Of a stretch of DNA of 64,000 bases, positions 41,585 through 59,843 are shown piece after piece. Under the pieces are notes generated by a model that saw only the letters and a list, made by a program, of their open reading frames with translations, ran no database searches and was not told where the DNA came from. Numbering within the stretch: position 1 is the first letter of the stretch; every line of letters starts with the position of its first letter. The stretch is taken from the NCBI GenBank assembly GCA_965214705.1, contig OZ243972.1, forward strand, positions 3,104,001 through 3,168,000. Direction: 5' to 3'. A program made the translations under genes and the position numbers. This stretch comes from Alphaproteobacteria bacterium (GTDB lineage Bacteria; Pseudomonadota; Alphaproteobacteria; UBA828).

Positions 41585-43787
41585 CAGGGCGAATTTGTCC
41601 AAGCCTGATTTTTGAGTTCTGCGCTACGAGTTGACCTTGGGTCTGGTCAGCGCGCGCCAACCCTGCTATGGATTGAGGCGACTGGATTCGCGGTGTTCTG
41701 CTGCGGATCGGCTTCGAGCAGGGGGACGGTTTCTACGGTGGATCTTTCCGAGGTCGATGTCGCTGCTGTCCGGCCGGAGGACGAGGCCCGGTTCCGCGCG
41801 CTGATGGAGGGGCATCACTACCTGGGTGCGTCTGCGAAGGTGGGGGCGACGGCGTGGTACGTCGCCCATCGGCGCGGCGAGTGGCTGGCGCTGGCCGTGT
41901 TTTCGGCTGCGGCGCGCAAGTGCCGGGCGCGGGACGAGTGGATCGGCTGGGACTTCCGCACGCAGCACGGGCGGCTGCATCTGATCGCGAACAACGCGCG
42001 CTTCCTGATCCTGCCGGGACGGGGTGTTCCGAACCTCGGCTCGCGGGTGCTGGGGCTTTGCGCGCGGCGCTTGGCGCGCGACTGGCCGGCCCGCTTCGGC
42101 CACCCCGTGCTGATGCTGGAAACATTCGTGGACGCGGCGAGGTTCCGGGGCACGGTCTACCGGGCGGCTGGATGGCTGGCGGTCGGCCAGACCCGCGGCT
42201 TCCGGCGCCACCGCTCGGGCTATGTCGCCGGCTCGACGCCGAAGCTTGTGCTGCTGCGCCCCCTGGTTCCCGACGCCTGCCGCCGGCTGTCCGCTGCCGG
42301 GCTGGATCGGGAGTTGTGGAAGAAAGGAGTTCCGAGAACCATGATCAGCGCCGCTCAGCAAGAGTCGCTCTACGCCTACTTCAAGGACATCGACGACCCC
42401 CGCACGCGCAAGGGACGGCGGCATTCGCTGCCCAGCGTGCTCGCGCTTGCGAGTGGCGCGACGCTCTGCGGCATGCGAGGCTGGAAGGCCATCTCCGAGT
42501 GGGTCGACGATCTCGGCGAGAAGGCGCTGGCCCGCTTCGGCGTGCGGCTGCGCGACGGGGTGCGCCGGCCGCCTTCGATGTCGACCATCCGCAATGTGGT
42601 GATCCGGGTGGACCCGGACCAGTTGGACGAGGCGTTGCGCAAGTGGCAGGAGGCCCACGGCTCAGGCGACGCGGCGCTTGCCATCGACGGCAAGACCCTG
42701 AGGGGGGCCATCGACGAGGACGGGACCCAGGCTCATGTCATGAGCGCGGTCGGGCACGAGACCAAGGCCACGCTCGCCCAAAAAAACTTCTCCTGAAAGT
42801 CGGGGCCGACGAGGAGACAAAGCGCACCAACGAGATCGGCACCGTGACGGCGCTGGTGGACCTGATCCCGAACATCGCGGGCAAGACGGTCACGACGGAC
42901 GCGCTGCTAACCCAGCGCAAGTTCGCCCGCTACCTGCTCGACCGGGGCGCGCACTTCATGTTCATCGTGAAAGGGAACCAGAAGACCATGCGGGACGATG
43001 TGACGCTGCTCTTCGAAGAGGCGCCGGAGCGTGAGCCCGACTTCGAGGAGGAGGCCGCGCTGTCGCACGGACGCATCGAGCAGCGGGCAATCTGGACGAG
43101 CACGGAGTTGAACGGCTTTCTCGACTTCCCGGGCGTCGGCCAGGTCTTCATGATCGAGCGCTCCCGCCAGGACAAGAAGACCGGCGAGACCGGCACCGAG
43201 ACCGCCTACGGGATCTCCAGCCACACGCCCGGCACGGCCAACGCGCAGAGCCTGCTCGCCCTCAACCGCGGCCACTGGTGCATCGAGAACAGCTCGCACC
43301 ACTGCCTCGACTGGACCTGGGACGAGGACCGCAGCCGCATACGCACAGGCTTCGGCCCCGAGAACATGACCCGCCTGCGGCGCTTCGCCATCGGCCTGAT
43401 CAAGGGCCGGGGGCTCGAGGTCGCCTCGACCGTGCGCAGGCTCGCCCGCAACGTCCGCGCCGTCCTCGACTTCCTGAAAATGACCGGGAACACCCAGCCG
43501 AGGACCGCAAAGCGCGCCGCGCCGGCCTGAACCCCGGCGCCCGGCAAGCCGGGCGCAAAGATCGTACCTGCCCTCGCTCCCGACCACGCCGGTGGCGCGA
43601 TCCATCATGTCGGGGCACCGCCAAATCGCGACGGCACCGCCCGCACCGCCCACACGGTAATGCCAGAACCGTCTGACCGAACCGGATGCTCGGCCAGACC
43701 CCGCCGCAAACCCCGTAACAAAGCCGATCCGCACAACCCGTGGCCAGAACTCAACCGCCTACCAGCCGCTTGGACAAATTTGCCCTG
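41585..43787 (+). mobile_element. ISAs1-family element with DUF4338 fusion, copy B (complete)
   Basis: 20-bp IRs CAGGGCGAATTTGTCCAAGC / GCTTGGACAAATTTGCCCTG with 1 mismatch. No TSD visible. Confidence 0.9.
41612..43530 (+). CDS. DUF4338-ISAs1 transposase with a -1 frameshift at A AAA AAC near 42780-42787
   Basis: ORF1 ends AQKNFS*. The -1 frame continues ...TNEIG, TTDALLTQ, VKGNQ, HGRIE, RGHWCIEN..H..LD....ED.SR, the ISAs1 catalytic region. Confidence 0.85.
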
Positions 43788-44215
43788 ACCGAACCTGCGC
43801 CCAAGTTGACGGCAGGGAGCTGACGATGCCAAGGTTGCCATTTCGCAGCATGCATAAACGGGGTAAAGCTCGCATATGAGGCAAGCAGGTGATGGAAGCC
43901 TCTGGAAGGTTAAGGGTTGGGCAGGCTCTCTCTCGAGAGCCTGCCCAACCCTTTTGAACGAAGCCGCGGGCCACGAGAGGCGAAGTTGAGCTATGTGGAA
44001 AGTGCGCTGATGTCAGCGTCAGGCGGCATCCACCGGCAGCAGAGTTGCGCATAAAATCGACGCTCGCGCCGGTCTTTCGGCAGGCATGCGGGCGCACGCT
44101 GCGAGGACTGAGCGGGGTGTGAGCCGAGGGCTGTCAGCCCGGCTCAAGCGGAGACAGGTTCGGTCGTGCGTCGGCGCTTTGGCGCCGTTGCGCGGGGCCG
44201 AAGCGAGCGGGCGTC

Positions 44216-45457
44216 TCACGGTTTCCCCCTGTGGGTCGGCGGCAGCGCCGGCGGGCCGCGCGTCGAGCGGGGCTCATGGCGGCGGCGGATTTCGCGGACG
44301 AGGCGCATGACGCCGCCGCAGTGGGGGCAGGCCACGGGCGCGGTGCCGATCTCGGGCTCTTCGTCGGGCTCGGCCTGAGCGCCGTCCACGCTTCCCTCGG
44401 GGGCGGCGCAGCCGAGGGCGCCGAGAGCCTGGCGTGCTCTCTCCAGCGTGCTGGCGCGGCAGCCGTTGGCGAGGATGCCGAAGTAGCGAATGCGGTGCAT
44501 GCCGTCCGGCAGGACGTGCCTCAGGAAGCGGCGGATGAACTCGTCGGCGCTCACGGTGGCGATGCCGTAGCGCGGCTTTCTCTGCCCCGGCGCCTTGGGC
44601 TTTCGGTGGCGGAAGGAGACCGTCTCGCCGTCGAAGGAGACGATGCGGCTGTCGGAGATGGCGATCCTGTGCGTGTAGTGCGAGAGGTACCGGAAGACCT
44701 GCTCAGGCCCGCGGAAGGGCCGCTTGGCGTAGACCACCCAGTCCCTGGCCCGGGCGGCGGCAAGCGTGGCGTGGAACTCGCCGGGATTGGCGAGGTGGGC
44801 GAGGGTGCCGTGGAACTCCAGGTCCCCCCGGCCGTGGGCGCGGGCGAGCTCCTCGAGGAAGAGGCGGCGGAACAGGCTGCCGAGGACCTTGACGGGGGCG
44901 AGGAAGGTGGTGCTCCCCGTCTTCCACTCGCCACTGTCTACGTCGAAGCCCGCGTTGGGCACGACCACGTGCAGGTGCGGGTGGAAGCGGAGCTTCTGAT
45001 CCCAGGTATGGAGGACCGCGGTGCCGCCGATGCGCATGCCGCCGTGGCGGGGATCGGCGGCGATGGTGCGCAGGGTCTCGGCGACGGCCCGGAAGAGGAT
45101 GTCGAACACCACCCTGCGGTTGCAGAAGGCAATGGCGGCAACCTCCTTGGGCAGGGTGAAGACCACATGGAAGTAGGGCACCGGCAGGATGTCCCCGGCG
45201 CGCTCCTCGCTCCAGAGGTTGGCGGCGAGACCCTGGCAGGTGGGGCAGTGGCGGTTGCGGCAGGAGTTGAAGAGCGGATGCTCGCGCCCGCAGCCCTCGC
45301 AGGCGTACATGTGGCCGCCGAGCACGGCGGTGCGGCACGCCTCGATGGCGCCCATGACCTTGAGCCGGGCGGCGTCGATGCGCCCTTTGTGGCGCTCACG
45401 GAAAGCGGCGCCGGCGCGGCGGAAGATCTCCGCCACGCCCGCGCGTTCGGCCTCCAC
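44216..45457 (-). CDS. IS91-family (Y2/HUH) transposase with Zn-binding N-terminus
   Basis: CRT..LGG, SCRNRHCPTC, YFHVVFTLP, HPHLH (HUH), YLSHY, FLRHVLP.G..RIRYFG. Confidence 0.93.
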   Translation of the reverse strand: MEAERAGVAEIFRRAGAAFRERHKGRIDAARLKVMGAIEACRTAVLGGHMYACEGCGREHPLFNSCRNRHCPTCQGLAANLWSEERAGDILPVPYFHVVFTLPKEVAAIAFCNRRVVFDILFRAVAETLRTIAADPRHGGMRIGGTAVLHTWDQKLRFHPHLHVVVPNAGFDVDSGEWKTGSTTFLAPVKVLGSLFRRLFLEELARAHGRGDLEFHGTLAHLANPGEFHATLAAARARDWVVYAKRPFRGPEQVFRYLSHYTHRIAISDSRIVSFDGETVSFRHRKPKAPGQRKPRYGIATVSADEFIRRFLRHVLPDGMHRIRYFGILANGCRASTLERARQALGALGCAAPEGSVDGAQAEPDEEPEIGTAPVACPHCGGVMRLVREIRRRHEPRSTRGPPALPPTHRGKP

Positions 45458-45463
45458 GCGCCG

Positions 45464-46342
45464 TCAGTTGCGCAACGCTGCGAAGCCTGAGATCGGGTGG
45501 TCGAGGCCCTCGAACATCTTGCCGGTGACGCGGGCGTAGTGACGGGTCGTGTTCGCGCTTCGATGGCCGAGCATGTCCCGGATCACCTCGATATCGCCGC
45601 CGCGCTCGAGGAGATGGGTCGCCGCCGAATGGCGCAGGCAATGGAAGGTGTAGCTGCGGTCGAGCTCGGCAATGTCGCGCGCCCTCCTGAAGGCGGCCTG
45701 CAAGGTCTCCGTTGCGATGGGCCTGTCGAGCGAGACGCCGTAGAAGAGCCAGTTCGTCGGACGCGGCCAGATGTTCCTGTAGTAGACGCGCAAGTAGTGG
45801 ATGACGATGTCCGGCAACGGTGCCATTCTCTCGGTGCCGCCTTTGCCGGAGGGGATGTGCAGCAGCTTCTTCTCCGACAGGATGTCGCCGACCTTGATGG
45901 CCAAGGTCTCGGAGATGCGGAGCCCGCCGCCATAGCCGGTGACAATGGCAGCACGGTGGCGGAGGTCGGGTGTCGCAAGGATGAGGTGCTCGACCTCCTG
46001 CTCCGACATGTAGCGCGGCAGCTTGCCGGGCTTCTTGCGGGAGCGCAGGCCGGCGACATGGTCAGGCCAGCCGAGTGTGTCGATGTAGAGGAAGTTCAGC
46101 GCGGCGAAGGAGACGTTGGTCGTGCCCGGACTGAGCCCCTTGTCGATCCGCCCCAGGTACCACTGGCGCACCTGCTCGGCGTCGAGCTCGTCCGGCGAGG
46201 CGTCGTAGTACCTGGCCAGGTTCTTGATCTCGCAGATGTAGGCCTTGGACGTGCTCGCGGCCAGATTGGCGATGCGGAGCTGCTCCTCCATGCGCTGGCG
46301 AAGAGGGGTGACGGTGTTCGTGTCGCACGCGGTCCCGGTCAT
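45464..46342 (-). CDS. Tyrosine recombinase (IS91-associated)
   Basis: YGGGLRISE, GKGG.ER, HCLRHS.ATHLLE, LGH....T..Y. ATG at 46342 follows a GGGAG RBS. Confidence 0.92.
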   Translation of the reverse strand: MTGTACDTNTVTPLRQRMEEQLRIANLAASTSKAYICEIKNLARYYDASPDELDAEQVRQWYLGRIDKGLSPGTTNVSFAALNFLYIDTLGWPDHVAGLRSRKKPGKLPRYMSEQEVEHLILATPDLRHRAAIVTGYGGGLRISETLAIKVGDILSEKKLLHIPSGKGGTERMAPLPDIVIHYLRVYYRNIWPRPTNWLFYGVSLDRPIATETLQAAFRRARDIAELDRSYTFHCLRHSAATHLLERGGDIEVIRDMLGHRSANTTRHYARVTGKMFEGLDHPISGFAALRN

Positions 46343-46805
46343 TATCGATCTCCCTGGATCGCGACGGCGCGCCGCCGGACCGATCCGGCGACGGTCCGTC
46401 GCAGGGGTCGATGCTAACCACTGGTGATCGGGAGGCTGCTGGGGATCCGCCACCCGACGGGCGGAGCGCCACTGACGCAACCGGGAAGCGAACGCACAGA
46501 ACAAACGGCACCCGCGACGCCTCGGAAATGAATGAACTCTACGCCGCTAACTCCGCGTAGCGGCTTCGTTCAAATGATCTTGGACAGACGCCGCCGCAGA
46601 GAACCGGCACGTCGAAATCTCGCGCTTGTGACACGATGATGGGCGCTGCTAGGAATTTAGATGGTTGGAGTGAGGAATCGAACGGAAGCAACGCCTTGCG
46701 TTCTAGGGTGGTCTGTACTGATCGAGGGTATTCAATGATCTGCCGTGACACTTCATCTGAGGGCATTGCTCGCGAACACCCGGCTGCCGTTCTGAGGTTG
46801 GGCTC

Positions 46806-49165
46806 GTGACGACTCTTGTGGCACTTGCCTCCAAGGATGCGCTCGTCATGGGGACCGATAGCCTTGGCACCGTTACCAGGCGGCTATTGGATCCGTTTGA
46901 TCTCTTGGAGTGCTTTGACCCCAAGGACGATTTTAAGATCAAGGTCGACGACGAAGGCAAACCGTTACTCGATAACTTCTCCATCCTTATGGAACAAGCG
47001 CAGGTCGTTCCCTATAATCAGCTGAGCAATGTCTCAAAGTTGTTCGACCTTAGCCCTCTACCGATGGGAGTGATGTTCACCGGAATTACGTCGATTGGTC
47101 ACCGTACTATTGGTAAGTTGGTATCCGACTTCAAAGAAGCCGATTCGGCCTTTAGCAAAGACGCAGAGCCGTCGAATTATGCAGTTCGCGCGGTCGGTGT
47201 CCGGCTGCTGCAGACCTTGAGACAACTCTATGCAAGCACATACCCGCAAGAATACGCCCGCCCCGAACTTGAGCTCATAATTGGCGGCTACGACAATCTA
47301 CGCTACTTGCCTAGCCTATACAGGATTGACGTTCGCGAGGATACGATCGACGAGATATTCTCGAGCGACTCACCCTTCGGCGTAGCGTTTGGCGGGCAAA
47401 AGGACTGGATACAACGAATCGTCTTTGGTACAGACGAGGATAACCAAGTTAGCTTGGCACAGCGCGTACGCGATTTGCTCGTCGTCTATCATGATAAGAT
47501 AAGTGCCGCTGTTGCGGACGCAGGAATCGAGTTTGAAGTTCCACACCCACACACATGGGATGATGAACTCTATCTCTTCAATGGGTGGAACCTCCACGGC
47601 TTGGACGCCAACATCGCAGACTTCTCCGAACAGAATGCTATCGATTGCGTAGACTTCTTCATCGAAATCATGATCAGGGCCACTAGTGTCCCAACGTTAG
47701 CGGAATAAATTCAATTGGTTAGGGTGGTCTAGTTGGCCGATTTGCAGGTCCTCTGGGTCAAACAGTTGATAGAGAGGCGTTTTCTCGAACACCGTAAGGC
47801 TCAGGATCTGTAGAATTGTGTAGAGGCTCTGCTCCAGCTTCAGCCGCTTGCGGATGATGGCGACCAGGACATAGACCGACACCGCGATCCAGATCTGGGT
47901 CTTCACCGCGTTCTCCGAGGTGCCGAAGAAGGACTTGATCCGGAGGTGCTGCTTGATCCATTTGAAGAACAACTCAATGTGCCAGCGGGCACGGTAGAGT
48001 TCGGCGATCGTCAGAGCCGGCAGAACAAAGTTGTTGGTGAGGAAGACGAGGGTTTTGTCGCGCTCGGCATCTCGGTACCGGATCCGCCGTAGCTTGTCGG
48101 GATAATCGGTCGCGCTGTTGACGCCGCTTGGCCGTACGACCTGATCGCAGATGAGACCGCGGGTGCGATCGACAGGGCGGGAGTAGAGGCGGCGGAGCTT
48201 GGTGTTGGATTTCGCGCGCAGGACAAAGAAGCTGCCACTGTGATGCAGGTGATGGAGACGGCTGAAGTCGAGGTAGGCCCGGTCCATGATGTAGAAGGCT
48301 CCGGCCTCCGGCAGCAGCATGTCCATCACATTGACGTCGTGGAGTTTTCCGTCGGAGATGTGGATGAAGGCGGGGATGTGGCCGTGCAGGTCGAGCAGGG
48401 TGTGGAGCTTGACGGCGCCCTTTGTCTTGCGGAACGGAGCCCACGGGAACAGCGACAGGCAGAGGTCGATTGTCGAGGAGTCGAGGGCGTAGACGGTGTT
48501 ATCAAGATCAAGGCCGAGCGTATTGTCGTCGGCGTAGAGGTTTCGGGCGATGTGGATGAGATGTTGAGCGAAGTCGGCGTAGATCTGCCATTCGCGAACG
48601 GCGTTGGCATTGGCGAGGGTGTTGCGCGAGACCCTGCCACGGATCCCCATGTGATAGAGCTTTGTGGGTTGAACGCGCAGGCAGGTCTCGATGTCGCGCA
48701 AGCTGGCCCGATAAGTGAGCTGAGCGAAGGCCATGCATCGGTACTGATCCGCGCAGGTGAACGACTTGATCTTGCGGTTTCCGTTGTAACGGGCCACGCA
48801 GCGACGGAAACTGTGCCAGGGTAGGTGTTCCATGATTTGCGCGAAGACCAGCTTGCCGGAATACATCGGCCATCCTCTCCTGATACATGTTGGACAGGAA
48901 AAGCGTGCCGGACCGGCGCTACGGTCTCAAGTCGGTGACTCCCTTGAACAGGATTTCTCGAACGAATATCAATCTGTTAACCGCACCAGCTTCGAAAACG
49001 TTGGGACACTAGTGGATCAGGGCACAAGCTGTTAGTTCGCAATTGCCAACGGTCGGAGGTGATATAAACATAGCAGTAATACGCAAGGATGGATTTCGCT
49101 TTGTTTCGCGCCAAGAGTGGCGACACCGAGACCACAGCATCAAGATACCGGGGGTGCAGCAATGA
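46806..49165 (+). pseudogene. Proteasome-beta/HslV-like Ntn hydrolase (338 aa when restored), interrupted by IS4 (coding parts 46806-47680 and 49024-49165)
   Basis: M-T1-T-L-V-A-L...D17-S18, SKLF, FTG, LIIGGYD. Restored C-terminus IMIRAQAVSSQLPTVGGDINIAVIRKDGFRFVS...VQQ*. Confidence 0.8.
47681..49014 (-). mobile_element. IS4-family insertion sequence (transposase 47697..48866)
   Basis: Perfect 18-bp IRs CACTAGTGTCCCAACGTT. 9-bp TSD GATCAGGGC. Motifs LDSSTI, MDRAY and YRARWHIELFFKWIKQ. Confidence 0.95.
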
Positions 49166-49353
49166 AACTAAGAACACGCTTGTATCCAACAGTCAGGGAA
49201 GAGCGCGAAAGGAAGGCGCTCAAGAACAGGTTAGGGCTCACTCGCACTGCCATTGCCAAGGGCGGTGGCACGCCGAAGCCTAAATCGCAGGAGAAAGTGG
49301 GTGCCAAAGAGCACAGGGTGGTGACTGACTTGACAGGTGTCAACAAGAACTAG
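49162..49353 (+). CDS. Small basic hypothetical protein (63 aa)
   Basis: ATG overlaps the restored Ntn gene's stop (ATGA at 49162-65) and the ORF fills the gap up to the E1 stop. No recognisable family. Confidence 0.5.
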   Translation: MKLRTRLYPTVREERERKALKNRLGLTRTAIAKGGGTPKPKSQEKVGAKEHRVVTDLTGVNKN

Positions 49354-49361
49354 GCCCCGTT

Positions 49362-50765
49362 CTAACTTATATTCCGGGCTTTCACGAACCCTGGGTTGGT
49401 CGCTATAGCTTCAAGTGTGTTGTCAGATGCTTGTGATCTGTCGGGACTTCGCAGCGTGACACCTAACACCTCGATTCTTGGGCCTCCAGCGAGCGAACGC
49501 AGTACCTCCGCAAGCACGAATGTTGCAGCAACGCAGCCTACGAAAGCAGCTCCTATCGACCTTCCGGCCACTTCGATGATACCGCATCTAATCTCGCTAT
49601 CTGTTAGATCGGTGGTCCCCCTGACTCGCCGATGAAAGTCCTGATAGGCGGGTTGGTCAACGAGCACGCTTGTGTGCTGCGTGTGCTGCGTGTTGCGCGC
49701 AAGAAAAGCGTTCGTCGCTTTGATGCCTGAGGGGAACGAATGAATCAAGATGTCTAGGTAATTCCTTGGGCCTCCACCCAATCCCGCGTCGACAATTAGA
49801 TCAAACCCCGCACCCTCAAGATGGCGTCTTGGAGCAGGGTCATCGACCCCAACGAGCGCAACGCCTGGCTCGTTGACGCTGCGGCGTGTAGCAGAATCGA
49901 AGTACCGTTCGGTTATGTTCGTATTGAACCCTAGCGCTTCTAGGCGGCAGGAGACGACCCGTGTCTTCTTTCGGCCAATCAGCGAATCATCGCTGAGCAT
50001 CCCCGTACTTCCATTGGCCTTCACGATGCTGTCGAAATCCTGAAGAACCAAATCAACAGCTGAGCGATCCTCGTACGGCAGGAATGCCAGCGCCCACGCA
50101 TATGCCTGTCCCAGGTGGCCGAGGCCGATCAGCCAGAGTCGCTTGGGTAGATAGCGGCATGGTTCACCAAAGGCGGGCTCTTCTCGCCAATCGCACCGCG
50201 GCTCCCAAAGCGATAGCCCCGTCGACCTTCGACCGGCGACAACGTTGCCGCGCAGATTCTGAAACGCCTCCGATACTCCAAGCGATGCTGCAAGCATTCC
50301 TGCCAAGGGAAATTCGATTGATTCACCTAGTCGATCGTTCGTCTTCTGGACGACACCGCCGGACCACCCCTCCCAGGTTCCGTACAAAACCAAGCTCCCA
50401 ACCGGCTCTTCTCTTACTTCCCCAACTACGAGAGTCGGGTGGTGGTGGTCTAACGATTCGACAATCTCTCCCCCATAGGTCTCGACCGCAGTGGCTATGT
50501 TCATGCCCTCGACCCAGGATACTGCGACGCGCCCATGCTCACGAAGACGAACTCGAACGCCGCCAAGGAAAGCACGAACCGCTGTATTGACTGCGGTCAG
50601 TAACATTGCCTGACGGGTTTCGCTTTTGGCAATGCCAACGCCTACGTCGATTTGCAGTACGTAACTCGCCATGATCTCCTGTGCTTCATCGACAGTGCGA
50701 GCACGACCTTCGTCCAGTTCGAGTTTGGTGGTGCGGTGAAGCTGGTCGGAGTTGAGTGTGTCCAT
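49362..50765 (-). CDS. bilD: ThiF/E1-like ubiquitin-activating enzyme (BilD-like)
   Basis: LIGLGHLG nucleotide loop, QDFD...AN, RKKT, GVDD...RR, DAGLG, candidate catalytic Cys in IRCG. N-terminal extension consistent with an inactive adenylation domain. Confidence 0.85.
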   Translation of the reverse strand: MDTLNSDQLHRTTKLELDEGRARTVDEAQEIMASYVLQIDVGVGIAKSETRQAMLLTAVNTAVRAFLGGVRVRLREHGRVAVSWVEGMNIATAVETYGGEIVESLDHHHPTLVVGEVREEPVGSLVLYGTWEGWSGGVVQKTNDRLGESIEFPLAGMLAASLGVSEAFQNLRGNVVAGRRSTGLSLWEPRCDWREEPAFGEPCRYLPKRLWLIGLGHLGQAYAWALAFLPYEDRSAVDLVLQDFDSIVKANGSTGMLSDDSLIGRKKTRVVSCRLEALGFNTNITERYFDSATRRSVNEPGVALVGVDDPAPRRHLEGAGFDLIVDAGLGGGPRNYLDILIHSFPSGIKATNAFLARNTQHTQHTSVLVDQPAYQDFHRRVRGTTDLTDSEIRCGIIEVAGRSIGAAFVGCVAATFVLAEVLRSLAGGPRIEVLGVTLRSPDRSQASDNTLEAIATNPGFVKARNIS

Positions 50766-51299
50766 TCACCTGTTCCTTATGCGGAGGACGCGTTCCGCAT
50801 TTGAGCCGAACCATGATGCCCAACCACGTTCGCCGCGATACTCGTGAACTCCGACCTCTCTTGCTTGGACTGGACGGGTACCGTAGTGCGGCACGATAAG
50901 CGCGAGATGCCCCTCTCTCGCGATCATGGGATTCGCTCGATCTATGCCGCTTTGGGCGACTGAATTACCTGGGTGGGTATGTATGTCCGCTACGACCCGG
51001 AGACCTTCCGCATCACACAGATCCCAGAGTCTTGAGAAGCCTGATGCTCGAATGTGAATGTTGCCGACCAAGCACTCGGGGTCGAGGTCGTCAAAGTAGG
51101 CGACCTTTACCACGGTAAGTACTCCCTCCCGGGCTCGGCCAAGCAAGAAGACGCCCGATTCCCGTCGGCCACCAAGACCCCTACGACCGAGTTCCTGAAC
51201 TGTCTCTTGCCACAAGTCGAGCCCAATCTCTATGCGCGGTCGGCTGGGCCAAAGCCGTAGCCACCAACGAAAGACTGATCTATATGCCCGTATAATCAT
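50766..51299 (-). CDS. bilC: JAB/JAMM metallopeptidase (BilC-like)
   Basis: RESGVFLLG (Glu) and DIHTHP....QSGID give an intact JAMM E...HxH...SxxD motif. Confidence 0.88.
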   Translation of the reverse strand: MIIRAYRSVFRWWLRLWPSRPRIEIGLDLWQETVQELGRRGLGGRRESGVFLLGRAREGVLTVVKVAYFDDLDPECLVGNIHIRASGFSRLWDLCDAEGLRVVADIHTHPGNSVAQSGIDRANPMIAREGHLALIVPHYGTRPVQAREVGVHEYRGERGWASWFGSNAERVLRIRNR

Positions 51300-54200
51300 C
51301 GTTGTTCAGCATCTCGTGCAGAATTTGAAGTAGCCATGCGAGGTCTTTTGAAGGATCCCAAACCCGACGCGAATGCTGCGTCATCCAATTCGGGTGCCCA
51401 TTCAACGCCACACGGTCAAAAGGGGCGTAGAGCGCTCCCCCATCTTCCCAGTCAGTGCGAAATACGTGGCCCACTCGTTCCCCCTTGGGCCTCAATTCTG
51501 ACTCGAGCACACTCCCGGTTGTCGCGTTCCAGGGTGTTGCCGTTGGCGCCGACTCCGGATATCCGGATAAGTCGAACCGCAAAAAGGTTAAGGGTTGGGC
51601 AGGCTCTCTCTCGAGAGCCTGCCCAACCCTTTTGAACGAAGCCGCGGGCCACGAGAGGCGAAGTTGAGCTATGTGGAAAGTGCGCTGATGTCAGCGTCAG
51701 GCGGCATCCACCGGCAGCAGAGTTGCGCATAAAATCGACGCTCGCGCCGGTCTTTCGGCAGGCATGCGGGCGCACGCTGCGAGGACTGAGCGGGGTGTGA
51801 GCCGAGGGCTGTCAGCCCGGCTCAAGCGGAGACAGGTTCGGTCGTGCGTCGGCGCTTTGGCGCCGTTGCGCGGGGCCGAAGCGAGCGGGCGTCTCACGGT
51901 TTCCCCCTGTGGGTCGGCGGCAGCGCCGGCGGGCCGCGCGTCGAGCGGGGCTCATGGCGGCGGCGGATTTCGCGGACGAGGCGCATGACGCCGCCGCAGT
52001 GGGGGCAGGCCACGGGCGCGGTGCCGATCTCGGGCTCTTCGTCGGGCTCGGCCCGAGCGCCGTCCACGCTTCCCTCGGGGGCGGCGCAGCCGAGGGCGCC
52101 GAGAGCCTGGCGTGCTCTCTCCAGCGTGCTGGCGCGGCAGCCGTTGGCGAGGATGCCGAAGTAGCGAATGCGGTGCATGCCGTCCGGCAGGACGTGCCTC
52201 AGGAAGCGGCGGATGAACTCGTCGGCGCTCACGGTGGCGATGCCGTAGCGCGGCTTTCTCTGCCCCGGCGCCTTGGGCTTTCGGTGGCGGAAGGAGACCG
52301 TCTCGCCGTCGAAGGAGACGATGCGGCTGTCGGAGATGGCGATCCTGTGCGTGTAGTGCGAGAGGTACCGGAAGACCTGCTCAGGCCCGCGGAAGGGCCG
52401 CTTGGCGTAGACCACCCAGTCCCTGGCCCGGGCGGCGGCAAGCGTGGCGTGGAACTCGCCGGGATTGGCGAGGTGGGCGACGGTGCCGTGGAACTCCAGG
52501 TCCCCCCGGCCGTGGGCGCGGGCGAGCTCCTCGAGGAAGAGGCGGCGGAACAGGCTGCCGAGGACCTTGACGGGGGCGAGGAAGGTGGTGCTCCCCGTCT
52601 TCCACTCGCCACTGTCTACGTCGAAGCCCGCGTTGGGCACGACCACGTGCAGGTGCGGGTGGAAGCGGAGCTTCTGATCCCAGGTATGGAGGACCGCGGT
52701 GCCGCCGATGCGCATGCCGCCGTGGCGGGGATCGGCGGCGATGGTGCGCAGGGTCTCGGCGACGGCCCGGAAGAGGATGTCGAACACCACCCTGCGGTTG
52801 CAGAAGGCAATGGCGGCAACCTCCTTGGGCAGGGTGAAGACCACATGGAAGTAGGGCACCGGCAGGATGTCCCCGGCGCGCTCCTCGCTCCAGAGGTTGG
52901 CGGCGAGACCCTGGCAGGTGGGGCAGTGGCGGTTGCGGCAGGAGTTGAAGAGCGGATGCTCGCGCCCGCAGCCCTCGCAGGCGTACATGTGGCCGCCGAG
53001 CACGGCGGTGCGGCACGCCTCGATGGCGCCCATGACCTTGAGCCGGGCGGCGTCGATGCGCCCTTTGTGGCGCTCACGGAAAGCGGCGCCGGCGCGGCGG
53101 AAGATCTCCGCCACGCCCGCGCGTTCGGCCTCCACGCGCCGTCAGTTGCGCAACGCTGCGAAGCCTGAGATCGGGTGGTCGAGGCCCTCGAACATCTTGC
53201 CGGTGACGCGGGCGTAGTGACGGGTCGTGTTCGCGCTTCGATGGCCGAGCATGTCCCGGATCACCTCGATATCGCCGCCGCGCTCGAGGAGATGGGTCGC
53301 CGCCGAATGGCGCAGGCAATGGAAGGTGTAGCTGCGGTCGAGCTCGGCAATGTCGCGCGCCCTCCTGAAGGCGGCCTGCAAGGTCTCCGTTGCGATGGGC
53401 CTGTCGAGCGAGACGCCGTAGAAGAGCCAGCTCGTCGGACGCGGCCAGATGTTCCTGTAGTAGACGCGCAAGTAGTGGATGACGATGTCCGGCAACGGTG
53501 CCATTCTCTCGGTGCCGCCTTTGCCGGAGGGGATGTGCAGCAGCTTCTTCTCCGACAGGATGTCGCCGACCTTGATGGCCAAGGTCTCGGAGATGCGGAG
53601 CCCGCCGCCATAGCCGGTGACAATGGCAGCACGGTGGCGGAGGTCGGGTGTCGCAAGGATGAGGTGCTCGACCTCCTGCTCCGACATGTAGCGCGGCAGC
53701 TTGCCGGGCTTCTTGCGGGAGCGCAGGCCGGCGACATGGTCAGGCCAGCCGAGTGTGTCGATGTAGAGGAAGTTCAGCGCGGCGAAGGAGACGTTGGTCG
53801 TGCCCGGACTGAGCCCCTTGTCGATCCGCCCCAGGTACCACTGGCGCACCTGCTCGGCGTCGAGCTCGTCCGGCGAGGCGTCGTAGTACCTGGCCAGGTT
53901 CTTGATCTCGCAGATGTAGGCCTTGGACGTGCTCGCGGCCAGATTGGCGATGCGGAGCTGCTCCTCCATGCGCTGGCGAAGAGGGGTGACGGTGTTCGTG
54001 TCGCACGCGGTCCCGGTCATTATCGATCTCCCTGGATCGCGACGGCGCGCCGCCGGACCGATCCGGCGACGGTCCGTCGCAGGGGTCGATACTAACCACT
54101 GGTGATCGGGAGGCTGCTGGGGATCCGCCACCCGACGGGCGGAGCGCCACTGACGCAACCGGGAAGCGAACGCACAGAACAAACGGCACCCGCGACGCCT

Positions 54201-54426
54201 CGGAAATGAATGAACTCTACGCCGCTAACTCCGCGTAGCGGCTTCGTTCAAGGTACTCAGAAGGCGCGCCGTCTCTTCGGGCAGCCGTTACGGTAATCAT
54301 GACGATAGGCCAAGCGGTCTCGTCCACGATCTGCCATCTGCCTCGGTAGACACCCTCTTGGAACCGAGCGCTCGCCACATGTTGGCGAAGGGCGCGTTCA
54401 TCTGGGGGTATAGAAACTATATCCAC
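51280..54426 (-). pseudogene. bilB: E2-like conjugating enzyme (BilB-like), interrupted by IS91 copy 2 (coding parts 54252-54426 and 51280-51585)
   Basis: PDERALRQH...F..G...GRW....WP joined to LRFDLSGYP..APTA.PW...LYAPFDR...GHPNW. Lies between the Ubl and JAB genes. Confidence 0.75.
51586..54251 (-). mobile_element. IS91 + tyrosine recombinase element, copy 2 (transposase 51894..53135, recombinase 53142..54020)
   Basis: Same 2666-bp length and ends as copy 1, with a few SNPs. Confidence 0.92.
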
Positions 54427-54429
54427 ACC

Positions 54430-57400
54430 CTAGCCCTCGAAGCGTTCCCTCGGAACAAGATCCAAGCATACGGAGCAATCGTCATCCGCGTAAAAGCCGA
54501 TGTGATCTGCTTGGTCGAGTTCGGTCTCCGTTCCGCAGATCGCGAACAAGTGCTTGGCAGCTTCACTGTCAGTCAGCTTGAAGCCTTCAGGGCTTGCAGC
54601 CCACTTGAGGATGAAGTCAACACTAGTCGGCGGGGAGAATGATCCCTCTATCGAATCGCCGCCAAAGCGAACTTTGACAAGAACTGCCTTGCGACCACAC
54701 CTGCTTCTGTCAACGTTTTCTCAGGATCAAGCGGTTCCTTACCATCCTCTAGCCAGACCAGAGCTTCCTCGTCCAGGCACTCTTTCGCGAAGTCACCGAC
54801 TTTCATGTCGGGATCGACCTTTACGAAGCCTGTCTCAGTGGCTCGCTGGTGAAGGTTAAGGGTTGGGCAGGCTCTCTCTCGAGAGCCTGCCCAACCCTTT
54901 TGAACGAAGCCGCGGGCCACGAGAGGCGAAGTTGAGCTATGTGGAAAGTGCGCTGATGTCAGCGTCAGGCGGCATCCACCGGCAGCAGAGTTGCGCATAA
55001 AATCGACGCTCGCGCCGGTCTTTCGGCAGGCATGCGGGCGCACGCTGCGAGGACTGAGCGGGGTGTGAGCCGAGGGCTGTCAGCCCGGCTCAAGCGGAGA
55101 CAGGTTCGGTCGTGCGTCGGCGCTTTGGCGCCGTTGCGCGGGGCCGAAGCGAGCGGGCGTCTCACGGTTTCCCCCTGTGGGTCGGCGGCAGCGCCGGCGG
55201 GCCGCGCGTCGAGCGGGGCTCATGGCGGCGGCGGATTTCGCGGACGAGGCGCATGACGCCGCCGCAGTGGGGGCAGGCCACGGGCGCGGTGCCGATCTCG
55301 GGCTCTTCGTCGGGCTCGGCCCGAGCGCCGTCCACGCTTCCCTCGGGGGCGGCGCAGCCGAGGGCGCCGAGAGCCTGGCGTGCTCTCTCCAGCGTGCTGG
55401 CGCGGCAGCCGTTGGCGAGGATGCCGAAGTAGCGAATGCGGTGCATGCCGTCCGGCAGGACGTGCCTCAGGAAGCGGCGGATGAACTCGTCGGCGCTCAC
55501 GGTGGCGATGCCGTAGCGCGGCTTTCTCTGCCCCGGCGCCTTGGGCTTTCGGTGGCGGAAGGAGACCGTCTCGCCGTCGAAGGAGACGATGCGGCTGTCG
55601 GAGATGGCGATCCTGTGCGTGTAGTGCGAGAGGTACCGGAAGACCTGCTCAGGCCCGCGGAAGGGCCGCTTGGCGTAGACCACCCAGTCCCTGGCCCGGG
55701 CGGCGGCAAGCGTGGCGTGGAACTCGCCGGGATTGGCGAGGTGGGCGACGGTGCCGTGGAACTCCAGGTCCCCCCGGCCGTGGGCGCGGGCGAGCTCCTC
55801 GAGGAAGAGGCGGCGGAACAGGCTGCCGAGGACCTTGACGGGGGCGAGGAAGGTGGTGCTCCCCGTCTTCCACTCGCCACTGTCTACGTCGAAGCCCGCG
55901 TTGGGCACGACCACGTGCAGGTGCGGGTGGAAGCGGAGCTTCTGATCCCAGGTATGGAGGACCGCGGTGCCGCCGATGCGCATGCCGCCGTGGCGGGGAT
56001 CGGCGGCGATGGTGCGCAGGGTCTCGGCGACGGCCCGGAAGAGGATGTCGAACACCACCCTGCGGTTGCAGAAGGCAATGGCGGCAACCTCCTTGGGCAG
56101 GGTGAAGACCACATGGAAGTAGGGCACCGGCAGGATGTCCCCGGCGCGCTCCTCGCTCCAGAGGTTGGCGGCGAGACCCTGGCAGGTGGGGCAGTGGCGG
56201 TTGCGGCAGGAGTTGAAGAGCGGATGCTCGCGCCCGCAGCCCTCGCAGGCGTACATGTGGCCGCCGAGCACGGCGGTGCGGCACGCCTCGATGGCGCCCA
56301 TGACCTTGAGCCGGGCGGCGTCGATGCGCCCTTTGTGGCGCTCACGGAAAGCGGCGCCGGCGCGGCGGAAGATCTCCGCCACGCCCGCGCGTTCGGCCTC
56401 CACGCGCCGTCAGTTGCGCAACGCTGCGAAGCCTGAGATCGGGTGGTCGAGGCCCTCGAACATCTTGCCGGTGACGCGGGCGTAGTGACGGGTCGTGTTC
56501 GCGCTTCGATGGCCGAGCATGTCCCGGATCACCTCGATATCGCCGCCGCGCTCGAGGAGATGGGTCGCCGCCGAATGGCGCAGGCAATGGAAGGTGTAGC
56601 TGCGGTCGAGCTCGGCAATGTCGCGCGCCCTCCTGAAGGCGGCCTGCAAGGTCTCCGTTGCGATGGGCCTGTCGAGCGAGACGCCGTAGAAGAGCCAGTT
56701 CGTCGGACGCGGCCAGATGTTCCTGTAGTAGACGCGCAAGTAGTGGATGACGATGTCCGGCAACGGTGCCATTCTCTCGGTGCCGCCTTTGCCGGAGGGG
56801 ATGTGCAGCAGCTTCTTCTCCGACAGGATGTCGCCGACCTTGATGGCCAAGGTCTCGGAGATGCGGAGCCCGCCGCCATAGCCGGTGACAATGGCAGCAC
56901 GGTGGCGGAGGTCGGGTGTCGCAAGGATGAGGTGCTCGACCTCCTGCTCCGACATGTAGCGCGGCAGCTTGCCGGGCTTCTTGCGGGAGCGCAGGCCGGC
57001 GACATGGTCAGGCCAGCCGAGTGTGTCGATGTAGAGGAAGTTCAGCGCGGCGAAGGAGACGTTGGTCGTGCCCGGACTGAGCCCCTTGTCGATCCGCCCC
57101 AGGTACCACTGGCGCACCTGCTCGGCGTCGAGCTCGTCCGGCGAGGCGTCGTAGTACCTGGCCAGGTTCTTGATCTCGCAGATGTAGGCCTTGGACGTGC
57201 TCGCGGCCAGATTGGCGATGCGGAGCTGCTCCTCCATGCGCTGGCGAAGAGGGGTGACGGTGTTCGTGTCGCACGCGGTCCCGGTCATTATCGATCTCCC
57301 TGGATCGCGACGGCGCGCCGCCGGACCGATCCGGCGACGGTCCGTCGCAGGGGTCGATACTAACCACTGGTGATCGGGAGGCTGCTGGGGATCCGCCACC

Positions 57401-57535
57401 CGACGGGCGGAGCGCCACTGACGCAACCGGGAAGCGAACGCACAGAACAAACGGCACCCGCGACGCCTCGGAAATGAATGAACTCTACGCCGCTAACTCC
57501 GCGTAGCGGCTTCGTTCAAGAAAGATCTCCATCAT
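54430..57535 (-). pseudogene. bilA: Two-domain ubiquitin-like protein (BilA-like), interrupted by IS91 copy 3 and frameshifted near 54695 (coding parts 57520-57535 and 54430-54853)
   Basis: AAGGAG RBS, then MMEIF|LHQRATETG...VWLEDGKEPLDPEKTLTEAGV. A second frame gives KAVLVKVRFGG...SVCLDLVPRERFEG*, ending in Gly. First gene of the Ubl-E2-JAB-E1 operon. Confidence 0.75.
54854..57519 (-). mobile_element. IS91 + tyrosine recombinase element, copy 3 (transposase 55162..56403, recombinase 56410..57288)
   Basis: Same ends and length as copies 1 and 2. Excision restores MEIFLHQR in frame. Confidence 0.92.
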
Positions 57536-57597
57536 ACGTTCTCCTTGCACTCACGCCGCGGTGGACGAGCTTGCGCTGCAGCCCACCATGATGTAGC

Positions 57598-57660
57598 ATT
57601 TGCAAATCCGACGTTTGATTCGACAAGGGCAATATTGCACATGCGAGGGACAATTGCAAG
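57598..57660. promoter_or_regulatory. Palindromic candidate operators between the Ubl operon and the XRE gene
   Basis: ATTTGCAAAT at 57598-57607, GCAATATTGC at 57629-57638 and CAATTG at 57651-56, with recurring TTGCA half-sites. Confidence 0.5.
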
Positions 57661-58057
57661 AGGGCAATTCTCAAAGGCCGATCAAGTTGGGCAAAGCAGA
57701 GCGTCGCGCACGCAACGCTTTGATGCAGAGGCTTTTTTCTCGGCCCTTGATGCGGAGCGCAGGAGTCGACGGCAGACTTGGAAGGGGGTTGCAGAAGAGG
57801 CCCGGGTCAGCGCCTCCACCCTCACGCGCATGGCGCAAGGCAGGCGGCCGGACGTAGACAGTATGGCGGCCCTGATAGCATGGTCCGGTTTGAGCGCAGA
57901 CGCGTTCGTGAGGGACATCCGAGCAACGCCCGGACCCAGTTCCTTATCAGTGATCTCAACGTCCTTGAAGAGAGACCCTCACCTAACTCCGGAAGCCGCT
58001 GAAGCCCTCGACGAGTTGATGAAGGCAACTTACGAGCGGATGCGGAGCAAGAACTAA
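57641..58057 (+). CDS. XRE-family HTH regulator, divergent from the Ubl operon (start uncertain)
   Basis: FDAEAFFSALDAERRSR..TWKGVAEEARVSASTLTRMAQGRRPDVDS..AL..W. Confidence 0.85.
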   Translation: MRGTIARGQFSKADQVGQSRASRTQRFDAEAFFSALDAERRSRRQTWKGVAEEARVSASTLTRMAQGRRPDVDSMAALIAWSGLSADAFVRDIRATPGPSSLSVISTSLKRDPHLTPEAAEALDELMKATYERMRSKN

Positions 58058-58631
58058 CTTCTCGAGTCAAGGGGTCTCAAGCACGAAATTCGGTGACGAG
58101 GACATGGAAGGCCTGTCGTCGTCTGGGGATTGAATCGATCCGATTACGGCACGATGACAGGCGTCCCGCGTATTTCGCCGGGCCAATCGAAGAATCAAGG
58201 AATTCCGCCGGGTTGCGCGCCCCCTCGCCGCGTCGGGCCGCGATTCTGACGAAATGAGGGCAAGTGGTGACTTTCCTAGATCGCGACCTGCGATCGGAGA
58301 GCGGGAGCGGCGTGTAATGTTGGTTTCTCCCGGGGTCGGGTTCGGGATCAAGGTGTCGACCAAGCAGCGGCCGATGCGCGAAGCCTAAGGTGAGCGATCT
58401 CGAGGCGTGTCGCGGTATCTCCGGGCGTCGTGGCCTGGTTCCTGCCCAGGAGCGGTGACATCCGCCTGAAGAACCGCCCCGAGGACGGCCTGCGCGCGAC
58501 GGTCGCGCTTCCGGGAACGGACCGGCCGTGAGTGGGCGCCGGCGATCGGCGGCACCAGACATACTCTGAATAGCTCCCGGTGCGGACTCGGCTTCGCGGG
58601 CCCCGCGCTACCCTTCCGTCCACGGCACGAG

Positions 58632-59050
58632 TTAGCCGACGCCGCGCTTGTTGAGGATCCAGGCCGGCCGGGCCGGGTCGTCGCCGAGCTTGCGCTGCAG
58701 CTGCTTGACGAAGGTGCGGACCCGGTCCGCGTCGCGCCCGTCCGGCTCGCTCCACAGCCGGCGGATCAGCGACTCGTAGGTCGAGACCCGCACAGCGTTC
58801 TGCGTGAACAAGCGCAGGAACTCGTATCCGGTGGCGGTCAGCCGCACCGGAAGCCCGCCCGTGGCGACCCGCCGCGCCTCGTAGTCGACGGCGAGGTCGC
58901 CGAGCGCGAAGGCCTCCGGTCCGGCCCGTTTGCGAAGCGCCGCCTGGATTCGCGCCGTGAGCTCGGTCGCAGAGAGGGGCTTGACCTGGTAGTCGACGGC
59001 ACCTCGCTCCAGTGCCCTGGCAATGGTCTCGTCGCGTCCGTAGGCGGAGT
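58632..59050 (-). pseudogene. Truncated OmpR/KdpE-family response regulator
   Basis: SAYG..ETIARALERGAVDY.VKP...EL.ARI and LRKLGDDP-like ...P.WILN.RGVG*. N-terminus missing and the end is premature. Confidence 0.8.
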
Positions 59051-59139
59051 TAGCAATCTGTTGCTCAAAGTCGAATGTGGCGGCGCGGCGGTCCAAATTC
59101 GTCTCGGGAACGTGGCGCGGTTCCCCGACGATAGCACGC

Positions 59140-59843
59140 GCGTCGCCACGCTCGCGATGCACAATGGCGGCGTCATCGCCCTGCCGCCGCCGAGGGGGCG
59201 CAAGTACCGGCCCAGACCGATTGTCTTCGGTCTTGAGACCGAGCCGCCGCTGTTCCCCGCACCGACGAGCCTCGACGAGGCGCGCCCGCTGGACATGCGC
59301 ATCGTCGCGAGAGGCACCCGCGAGGGCAGGCTGTGGAACGAGTTCGTCGCCCGTTACCACTACCTCGGATACAGGACCCTCGTCGGCGCCCAGATGCGCT
59401 GCGCCGTCCACGACCGCAACGGCTAGCCGCTCGCCATGCTCGGCTTCTCCACCGCCGCCTGGAAGCTCGCCCCGCGCGACAGCTTCATCGGATGGACGCC
59501 CAAGATGCGCGAGAAGAACCTCCCGCTGGTGGTCGACAACCCGCGCTTCCTGATCCCGCCCTGGATCCAGATCCCCAACCTTGGATCGCACATCCTTGCC
59601 ATCGTGCGCCGTCGCCTGCTCGGGGACTGGACCGAGCGCTACAACACCACGCCCGTGCTCATCAAGACCTTCGTCGAGACCCCGCGCTTCACCGGCGCGC
59701 TCTACAAGGCGTCAGGCTGGAACTACGTCGGAACCACCCAGGGCCGCGGGCGCTACGGCAGGCACACCAAGCGGGACCAGCCGAAGAAAGACATCTGGCT
59801 CCGGCCGCTCCGAAAAGACTGGAAGCGAACTCTCAACCGATGA
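59140..59843 (+). pseudogene. DUF4338 (DruA-like) protein remnant with an in-frame TAG at 59424-26
   Basis: YHYLGY..LVGAQ, AAWKLAPRD.FIGW, NPRFLIPPW, TFVE..RFTG..YKASGW...G.TQGRG. Both ORFs are in the same frame. Confidence 0.8.

Follow-up and report, generated by a model that had tools for sequence, protein, structure and literature searches.

A divergent Bil operon and a proteasome-beta-like hydrolase cassette share a seven-gene block within one Bil lineage

Two kinds of described system come closest to the locus studied here, a seven-gene block in a 64,000-nucleotide stretch of an alphaproteobacterial genome (assembly GCA_965214705.1, contig OZ243972.1; the whole stretch is called the window below), in which a Bil operon meets the gene of a hydrolase predicted to have a proteasome-type fold. 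On the conjugation side, the Type I BilABCD (bacterial ISG15-like) antiphage system of Collimonas sp. OK412 has the same bilA-bilB-bilC-bilD order, and the four PADLOC profiles, the terminal Gly of BilA and the JAB motif are alike. The block differs from it by adding a convergent hydrolase gene, a small open reading frame (ORF) and an XRE gene as fixed parts, and by a BilB that has no Cys and carries Phe where related BilB has Cys. According to the accessible text of the Bil reports, 17% of Type II Bil operons are not made up of four genes. CapH lies divergently upstream in 15% of Type II Bil operons, again in the available portion of the source (10.1101/2023.09.26.559546). Like CapH of the CapH/CapP pair, which occurs in Bil, CBASS (signalling against phages by cyclic oligonucleotides) and other defence operons, the XRE-type helix-turn-helix (HTH) gene of the block lies divergently upstream of bilA, whereas none of the seven block products matches the peptidase M78 (CapP-type) model. 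Bub operons also combine bacterial conjugation of a ubiquitin-like protein (Ubl) with an extra unusual protease and set a precedent for cysteine-free E1/E2 chemistry, but in the accessible part of that work BubE is a Ser-His protease of the DUF6527 family and not an N-terminal nucleophile (Ntn) hydrolase, and the E1, E2 and Ubl families and the gene fusions differ (PMC11601596).

On the protease side, the hydrolase shares with the 20S beta subunit, Anbu, HslV and BPH the predicted fold, and an Asp and a Lys at the expected places (Asp17, Lys33); its Thr right after the Met is as in Gram-negative HslV. It differs from them in its length of 338 amino acids against about 200, its large insertions, the absence of a match to the Pfam Proteasome family, the absence of an ATPase partner and the presence of a dedicated small partner encoded downstream. 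The PMI group ('proteasome homologs with multiple insertions') unites relatives of the proteasome from bacteria and archaea that have insertions at S3/S4 and H3/H4, are patchily distributed and in some cases are carried by phages, as far as the accessible text goes (PMC8665760). The insertion pattern of the hydrolase resembles that of these homologues, a likeness drawn from the published description, and a cluster look-up returned no accession equal to the PMI-1 to PMI-6 representatives. For the 22 'new proteasome homologs' of Fuchs, Alva and Lupas (2021), the available portion of the paper states that the genomic context was uninformative (PMC8665760); the hydrolase here differs in having two conserved partner genes and a lineage linked to Bil. 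Connectase, a monomer-type archaeal proteasome homologue with an insertion over the active site, is described in the accessible text as a sequence-specific ligase whose target is a single short conserved motif in a single protein, MtrA (PMC8665760, PMC7980362). Its fold is related to that of the hydrolase (Z score 11.6) but much more distant than 20S beta, the partner of the hydrolase is encoded immediately downstream, and ligation is no part of the reading proposed here.

Once one IS4-type and two IS91-type insertion sequence (IS) copies are taken out, positions 46796–58063 of the window collapse to a 4.6-kb, AT-richer block. The hydrolase gene (338 amino acids) and a 63-amino-acid ORF point rightwards, bilD, bilC, bilB and bilA point leftwards, and the XRE gene, divergent from bilA, closes the block (Table 1). 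A preliminary description of the window, made from the letters alone, had proposed this arrangement of Ntn hydrolase, ORF, E1, JAB, E2, Ubl and XRE gene and had recognized the Ubl-E2-JAB-E1 series as a Bil operon. The PADLOC matches to BilA–BilD, the homologues and intact copies elsewhere (loci L001–L003) agree with it on both points. Its 8 bp between the convergent stops of the 63-amino-acid ORF (49353) and bilD (49362) were confirmed, as was the higher AT content of the unit, with a GC fraction of 0.50–0.58 in the block against 0.64–0.74 in the IS copies and most flanks; directly past the XRE end of the block it is 0.59–0.62.

The hydrolase-Bil link is strict inside one Bil lineage. We sampled 25 loci encoding a hydrolase relative from contigs of one genome per species, and the seven-gene block is intact in three of them, namely L001 (Longimicrobiales), L002 (Paracoccaceae) and L003 (Dehalococcoidia), reported as other phyla. 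All seven products in these loci are 56–98% identical to those of the window, piece by piece. DNA homology between the window and the three copies runs from about 10 nt before the hydrolase start to the XRE stop, with unrelated flanks; in some copies a similarity that is only weak reaches about 100 nt further upstream. As DNA similarity is bounded by the hydrolase start and the XRE stop, the mobile unit consists of exactly seven genes. In metagenomes, 18 longest-contig sizes are identical between the hydrolase hits (best 120 of 271) and the BilB hits (104), which places both families on at least 18 contigs, some of only 6–9 kb. Of the hydrolase hits, at least 75 clusters reach 60% identity or more. 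Across these 18 pairs the identity of the hydrolase to the window falls from 80% to 62% and that of BilB to L001 from 92% to 62%, the two falling together. The lineage is distinct, its BilD being only 28–37% identical to that of five further Bil operons, which came from a sample of 401 genomes of the window's phylum. The BilD profile matched six of these 401 genomes, the window genome included, and in 401 genomes of the phylum of L003 the BilB profile matched only L003's own genome.

Across families, there is no general link between hydrolase and Bil. The co-occurrence that the preliminary description proposed to check thus stands for one lineage (3/25 genome loci and 18 shared contigs) and does not extend beyond it (22/25 genome loci, 35/35 metagenome loci and 5/5 other Bil operons without the association). 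The protease/partner cassette is an autonomous, patchily distributed module. Pfam and PADLOC searches of 200 ORFs neighbouring the hydrolase at the 22 genome loci show housekeeping genes mixed with mobile or restriction genes, and the metagenome scan returned distant hydrolases only (41–50% identity over the best segment, near-full-length matches). Pattern scanning of viral contigs found no relative of the hydrolase or of BilB, and tblastn against plasmids gave no match. In 16 records of temperate Pseudomonas phages, a distant hydrolase relative stands directly after the integrase gene, a usual place for accessory genes in temperate phages. One such relative (L076, 4001–5023) is 23% identical over 96% of the length (E 2e-13) and begins Met-Thr; downstream of the phage relatives no small partner ORF was seen. 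In the related Chloroflexota loci L004, L005 and L011, the hydrolase/small-ORF pair occupies one syntenic housekeeping neighbourhood, and neither gene of the pair is intact in L011.

A search of 5.8 billion proteins returned 271 homologues of the hydrolase, mostly of 338 amino acids and up to 92% identical; full-length homologues of 338 amino acids align without a gap across the IS4 junction. Among 1.84 billion representatives, a profile search gave 1087 clusters at E 1e-3, a number that falls to 453 at 1e-10 and to 97 at 1e-30. No Pfam or PADLOC family matched the hydrolase, Proteasome (PF00227) included, at E up to 0.1 or 1, and a profile search of the Protein Data Bank (PDB) sequences gave a borderline match to beta type-4 (E 0.0098). 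The label proteasome-beta-like follows the predicted fold, which we judged on the AlphaFold model of P0002, the closest intact homologue and 92% identical to the hydrolase (predicted local distance difference test score, pLDDT, 77.8). Foldseek aligned this model to 20S beta with E 3.5e-9 and a template modelling (TM) score of 0.63–0.72 on the target, and the VIA comparison gave a Z score of 19.3 and a root-mean-square deviation of 4.1 over 196 aligned residues. The other VIA Z scores were 18.6 for Anbu, 14.3 for HslV and 14.1 for BPH. In the same comparison, Thr2 (residue 2 of the model) falls on residue 1 of the mature forms of beta, HslV and BPH. Thus, the model assigns the hydrolase a four-layer (alpha-beta-beta-alpha), proteasome-type Ntn fold that is 20S-beta-like, and the preliminary call of a proteasome-beta homologue agrees with the predicted fold and the Thr2 alignment, while finding no counterpart in Pfam.

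At least 90% of the sequences in the hydrolase alignment share T2, D18 and K78, the Lys being assigned by alignment rather than geometry. Together with the predicted fold, these residues make the hydrolase look active. The protein starts M-T-T and has no propeptide, so that removal of the Met would expose the Thr nucleophile; in Gram-negative HslV the N-terminal Thr likewise follows directly behind the Met. Two large insertions explain the extra length. One, at about residues 24–70, separates the second strand from the strand that bears the Lys, and the other, at about residues 199–275, lies between the last two core helices.

The 63-amino-acid ORF directly downstream is a conserved companion of the hydrolase far beyond Bil loci, a role missing from the preliminary description, which had its position right. 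We examined 58 loci with enough downstream sequence, a few of which are duplicates of one contig. At 33 of them an ORF of 44–95 amino acids starts −34 to +27 nt from the hydrolase stop, eight with the same 4-nt overlap as in the window. When these ORFs are aligned, every sequence has Y8, and at least 90% have T10 and E13; a helix and a basic tail follow. The small ORF has no Pfam or PADLOC family, and scans with the hydrolase and the small ORF gave chance-level hits only (Kelch, S14, ArfA). Only 24 homologues were found in the protein collection, of which at least 11 share a contig with the hydrolase or with BilB of this clade, judging from identical contig sizes; three small-ORF hits match BilB or hydrolase hits in contig size.

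At 14 of the 58 loci (L014, L015, L017, L039–L042, L045, L048, L049, L051, L054, L056 and L062), a GIY-YIG-like protein of about 107 amino acids takes the place of the small ORF. This alternative partner belongs to one hydrolase clade, begins with a conserved M-x-G-P and shows a C-terminal Cys pair; only the L017 protein attains Pfam GIY-YIG (E 8.6e-5, 23.2 bits against a cut-off of 22.6). At L014, a frame upstream of the GIY-YIG-like gene may hold a motif like that of the small ORF. Partner type tracks the hydrolase tree, with five changes against a mean of 9.9 after shuffling and a value as low in 0/200 shuffles. Of the 58 loci, 28 passed the start and length filter, L002 and others being dropped, and these supplied the 24 distinct rows of the test.

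Prediction of a complex between the hydrolase and the small protein scored 0.58, against 0.00 for the best of three controls, and lends weak support to binding. Among 80 solved complexes 58 attain the mark applied, as do 2 among 110 mismatched pairs, counts that hold only roughly here because our own alignments were used; only seven of the 80 solved complexes, and both mismatches that passed, reached it at 0.60 or below. The prediction runs share at least 52% of contacts, with a partner pLDDT of at least 49. The small Y-x-T-x-x-E protein would most likely be the bound partner or a substrate of the hydrolase, as its conserved position and this prediction suggest. Another idea, in which the small protein would itself be a tag resembling Pup or a Ubl and be exposed at a Gly-Gly-Gly within its chain, was rejected. 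This motif is fixed in the Bil-linked clade, yet L002 is without it and Bil-less relatives have T-G-H-x-P there.

The Bil genes lie on the minus strand in the order Ubl, E2, JAB, E1 by PADLOC and are intact in L001–L003. BilA matches positions 16–66 and 76–162 of the 162-position PADLOC profile, and its homologues end in Gly. The BilC translation holds the JAB/JAMM motif H-x-H-x7-S-x-x-D. BilD is 82% identical to the L001 copy and, as compared by eye and not by residue-level alignment to a studied enzyme, has a Cys-Gly in the same C-terminal stretch as in L068–L070. The XRE product is 84–85% identical to its L001 and L002 counterparts; its HTH_31 match (E 2.4e-4) is weak and under the Pfam cut-off, and its conserved part begins at about 57632, with an ATG at 57641.

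BilB in the window has no cysteine, and there is no conserved Cys among 37 members of its clade (47–96% identity). Most members have Phe in a strongly conserved L-Y-A-P-F-D-R stretch, where L068, P0206 and P0222 have Cys. In the accessible portion of the source, the C113A change in Collimonas BilB abolishes defence (10.1101/2023.09.04.556158). From its position, the Phe of our clade may be equivalent to C113. Four of the five other Bil operons sampled have Trp there, and the BilB of L071 is entirely without Cys. We therefore dropped the idea that Cys loss is peculiar to the hydrolase-linked clade, as four of these five operons are without Cys too. Because Cys is missing from many BilB proteins, many Bil 'E2' proteins may work without a thioester, which raises the question how such Bil variants transfer the Ubl. 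A phmmer search of PDB sequences with intact BilB gave no match at E up to 1, and our literature search found no paper on DUF7665, the Pfam family of BilB.

We favour the reading that the block represents a Type-I-like Bil lineage which took up a protease/partner cassette, autonomous elsewhere, and kept it as a co-selected proteolytic arm, and we give it a probability of about 0.5. Conserved adjacency is the usual criterion for one system, and it is the conserved adjacency of hydrolase cassette and Bil that leads us to put some functional coupling between them at even odds. The first module would be a divergent Type-I-like Bil operon, BilA–BilD, with a divergent XRE gene at the site of a CapH-type repressor, and the second a translationally coupled pair of the hydrolase and a basic Y-x-T-x-x-E protein of about 55–63 amino acids. 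One Bil lineage would have acquired the second module and kept it through considerable divergence and transfer between phyla. The Bil enzymes would attach BilA to target proteins. The hydrolase, under the guidance or restraint of its small partner, would cleave some component of the pathway, for which the conjugates, the partner protein and the XRE repressor are candidates. Narrower versions are rather unlikely. This applies to specific degradation of BilA conjugates by the hydrolase and, to the same degree, to a Bil lineage hard-wired to a proteasome-family Thr protease, in which the BilA tag would lead to cleavage without an unfoldase and the small protein would act as adaptor or gatekeeper.

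A number of observations weigh against the capture of the cassette as a proteolytic arm. No Bil gene was found within 10 kb at 22 of the 25 genome loci by tblastn and hidden Markov models (HMMs) built from the four block copies, and among the 200 neighbouring ORFs (within 4.5 kb, 22 loci) PADLOC showed no Bil in the top 25 families per tally. All 35 metagenome hydrolase loci are without Bil, many of their contigs being short. Nowhere in the genomes of L013 and L016 does a BilB of this clade occur, and L016 has a 70–72% identical hydrolase (a pseudogene) and the small ORF but nothing else of the block. Conversely, all five other Bil operons, with BilA–BilD present, have no hydrolase within 8 kb, and the Collimonas system works as four genes in the accessible text of its report (10.1101/2023.09.04.556158). 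The four complete block copies are one lineage spread by transfer and not four independent events, and the shared-contig argument is indirect, since it rests on identical contig sizes. Furthermore, the convergent orientation of the modules makes them separate transcription units, and no AAA+ unfoldase ATPase is encoded among the seven genes, unlike in the ubiquitin- or Pup-proteasome pathway. Finally, insertions at sites such as those of the hydrolase could, according to the accessible portion of Fuchs et al., prevent assembly of a ring or double ring (PMC8665760).

Many of these points speak for two conflict modules that are independent of each other and have a mini-island and a history of transfer, but no biochemistry, in common, the cassette being a self-contained pair, for example a protease controlling a small effector. 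The autonomy of the cassette at the 22 genome and 35 metagenome loci, its solitary survival in L016, its absence from the five other Bil operons and the convergent orientation all fit such an arrangement, as do the GIY-YIG-like partner at 14 of the 58 loci and the methyltransferase, type IIG restriction, integrase or transposase genes that adjoin some Bil-less loci. We keep it as a serious contender at somewhat below even odds, because the modules are convergent, both are autonomous elsewhere and there is no unfoldase. What it explains less well is the exact adjacency, with 8 bp between stops in the window and identical block ends in four phyla (as reported), and the parallel divergence on the same contigs to about 62–65% identity, over which unlinked island neighbours would not be expected to stay together.

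The hydrolase could instead be a regulatory protease replacing CapP, which would cut the XRE (CapH-like) repressor or the small partner upon a phage or damage signal and thereby switch on bilABCD. The CapH-like position of the XRE gene upstream of bilA and the lack of an M78 CapP-type gene in the block agree with this role, and a dedicated small partner would suit a switch-like protease. Most cassettes, however, have no adjacent HTH gene (HTH_3 in 4 of the 200 neighbouring ORFs), the XRE protein is without the Y-x-T-x-x-E motif, and hydrolase and XRE gene stand at opposite ends of the block, so we regard the role as distinctly improbable. Chance adjacency, or a housekeeping function of the hydrolase, is hardly credible. 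The Chloroflexota loci L004, L005 and L011, in which the cassette sits among genes such as purH and that of a penicillin-binding protein, would favour housekeeping; one of these three syntenic copies (L011) is a pseudogene, the distribution is patchy, and the distant relatives in the 16 phage records stand beside an integrase gene. Chance would leave unexplained a block bounded exactly by seven genes and recurring in four phyla (as reported). A circularly permuted element, with a single divergent promoter for XRE-hydrolase and bilABCD, was dropped given weak upstream similarity between the window, L001 and L016; this similarity suggests that the hydrolase may have its own upstream signals.

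In the papers searched we found no description of the seven-gene block; the supplementary operon lists of the Bil papers could record extra genes. The accessible portions of the Bil preprints, the Bub preprint and the Ubl-diversity preprint mention no proteasome-like gene, and the last of these, in the text available, considers it unlikely that Ubl conjugation in bacteria serves as a signal for degradation. Against that view, a Bil lineage never separated from a proteasome homologue offers the most direct genomic lead. For the hydrolase family, about 100–450 clusters at 50% identity, there are now two conserved partner genes and a connection with a defence system, from which work on the biochemistry of the hydrolase can start. 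If the narrower reading of a hard-wired Bil lineage is true, the block would encode a bacterial tag-and-cleave immune pathway working without an unfoldase.

Table 1. Features of the seven-gene block and the adjoining insertion sequences (positions in the window)
Feature	Position	Strand	Evidence and remarks
IS91-type element, copy 1	43908–46573	−	Y2 transposase and tyrosine-recombinase gene; outside block, about 230 nt upstream of hydrolase gene
Hydrolase, N-terminal 291 codons	46806–47679	+	M-T-T start; homologue alignment; 20S-beta fold of model
IS4-type insertion	47680–49022	−	element 47680–49015 and second copy of 7-bp target duplication, 49016–49022
Hydrolase, C-terminal 47 codons and stop	49023–49165	+	TGA 49163–49165; gap-free at junction against C-termini of intact homologues
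63-amino-acid partner ORF	49162–49353	+	ATG overlaps hydrolase stop by 4 nt (ATGA); N-terminal Y-x-T-x-x-E
BilD (E1)	49362–50765	−	intact, 467 amino acids; PADLOC BilD E 9.7e-155, profile positions 1–452 of 453
BilC (JAB/JAMM peptidase)	50766–51299	−	intact, 177 amino acids; PADLOC BilC E 1.1e-59; Pfam Prok-JAB E 3.7e-5
BilB, C-terminal piece (E2-like)	51280–51585	−	PADLOC BilB E 5.3e-35; Pfam DUF7665 E 3.1e-32
IS91-type element, copy 2	51586–54251	−	inserted in bilB; 2666 nt
BilB, N-terminal piece, 58 codons	54252–54426	−	PADLOC BilB E 1.2e-14; DUF7665 E 6e-10
BilA, main piece (putative tandem-domain Ubl, C-terminal Gly)	54427–54853	−	PADLOC BilA E 8.6e-25 (76–162) and 0.015 (16–66)
IS91-type element, copy 3	54854–57519	−	inserted after bilA codon 5; 2666 nt
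BilA start, first 5 codons	57520–57535	−	Shine-Dalgarno-like AAGGAG upstream; fits M-E-I-F start of intact homologues
XRE-type HTH gene	57545–58057	+	divergent from bilA; HTH_31 E 2.4e-4

In the window genome itself, an IS burst destroyed the hydrolase gene, bilA and bilB. The interruption of these three genes by one IS4-type and two IS91-type copies had been recognized before and is supported by 17-bp inverted ends, Pfam domains and further copies in the genome; the limits first proposed for IS91-type copies 2 and 3 (Table 1) fit the genome-wide copies. The earlier inventory of insertions in the block was correct, but it missed a third IS91-type copy upstream of the block, at 43908–46573, and a deletion of 28 nt in BilA near 54692, which shifts the frame relative to an intact homologue. 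In silico removal of the insertions, as the preliminary description had suggested, gave a mixed outcome, in that taking out 2666 nt restores the frame of bilA at its IS junction but leaves bilB with 1 nt too many and out of frame. With three genes split by IS copies, the 28-nt deletion in BilA and BilB 1 nt out of frame, the copy of the block in the window is dead, and with three of its seven genes broken, the question of hydrolase and Bil acting together is moot in this genome.

The IS4-type element, with DUF4372 and DDE_Tnp_1 domains by Pfam, has 17-bp inverted ends and a 7-bp target duplication at 47673–47679 and 49016–49022, and is present in four full-length copies in the genome. The IS91-type element carries Y2_Tnp, Zn_Tnp_IS91 and Phage_integrase domains in copy 2 (Pfam). 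Its three copies at the locus align without gaps over 2668 nt and differ at 1–4 bases. The 7.9-Mb genome has 41 full-length, virtually identical copies of the element (2666 nt), eight of which match only from base 3 of the 2668-nt query, and three of the 41 fall within 14 kb at this locus. The 41 virtually identical IS91-type and four full-length IS4-type copies genome-wide point to a recent burst. The surroundings have decayed too. Two more DDE transposase genes lie among the flanking ORFs at 36521–37648, 41854–43527, 58635–59591 and 59436–59840, together with a partial gene that matches Druantia DruA (E 7e-27) and an ORF that encodes no more of an OmpR-type regulator than its C-terminal domain.

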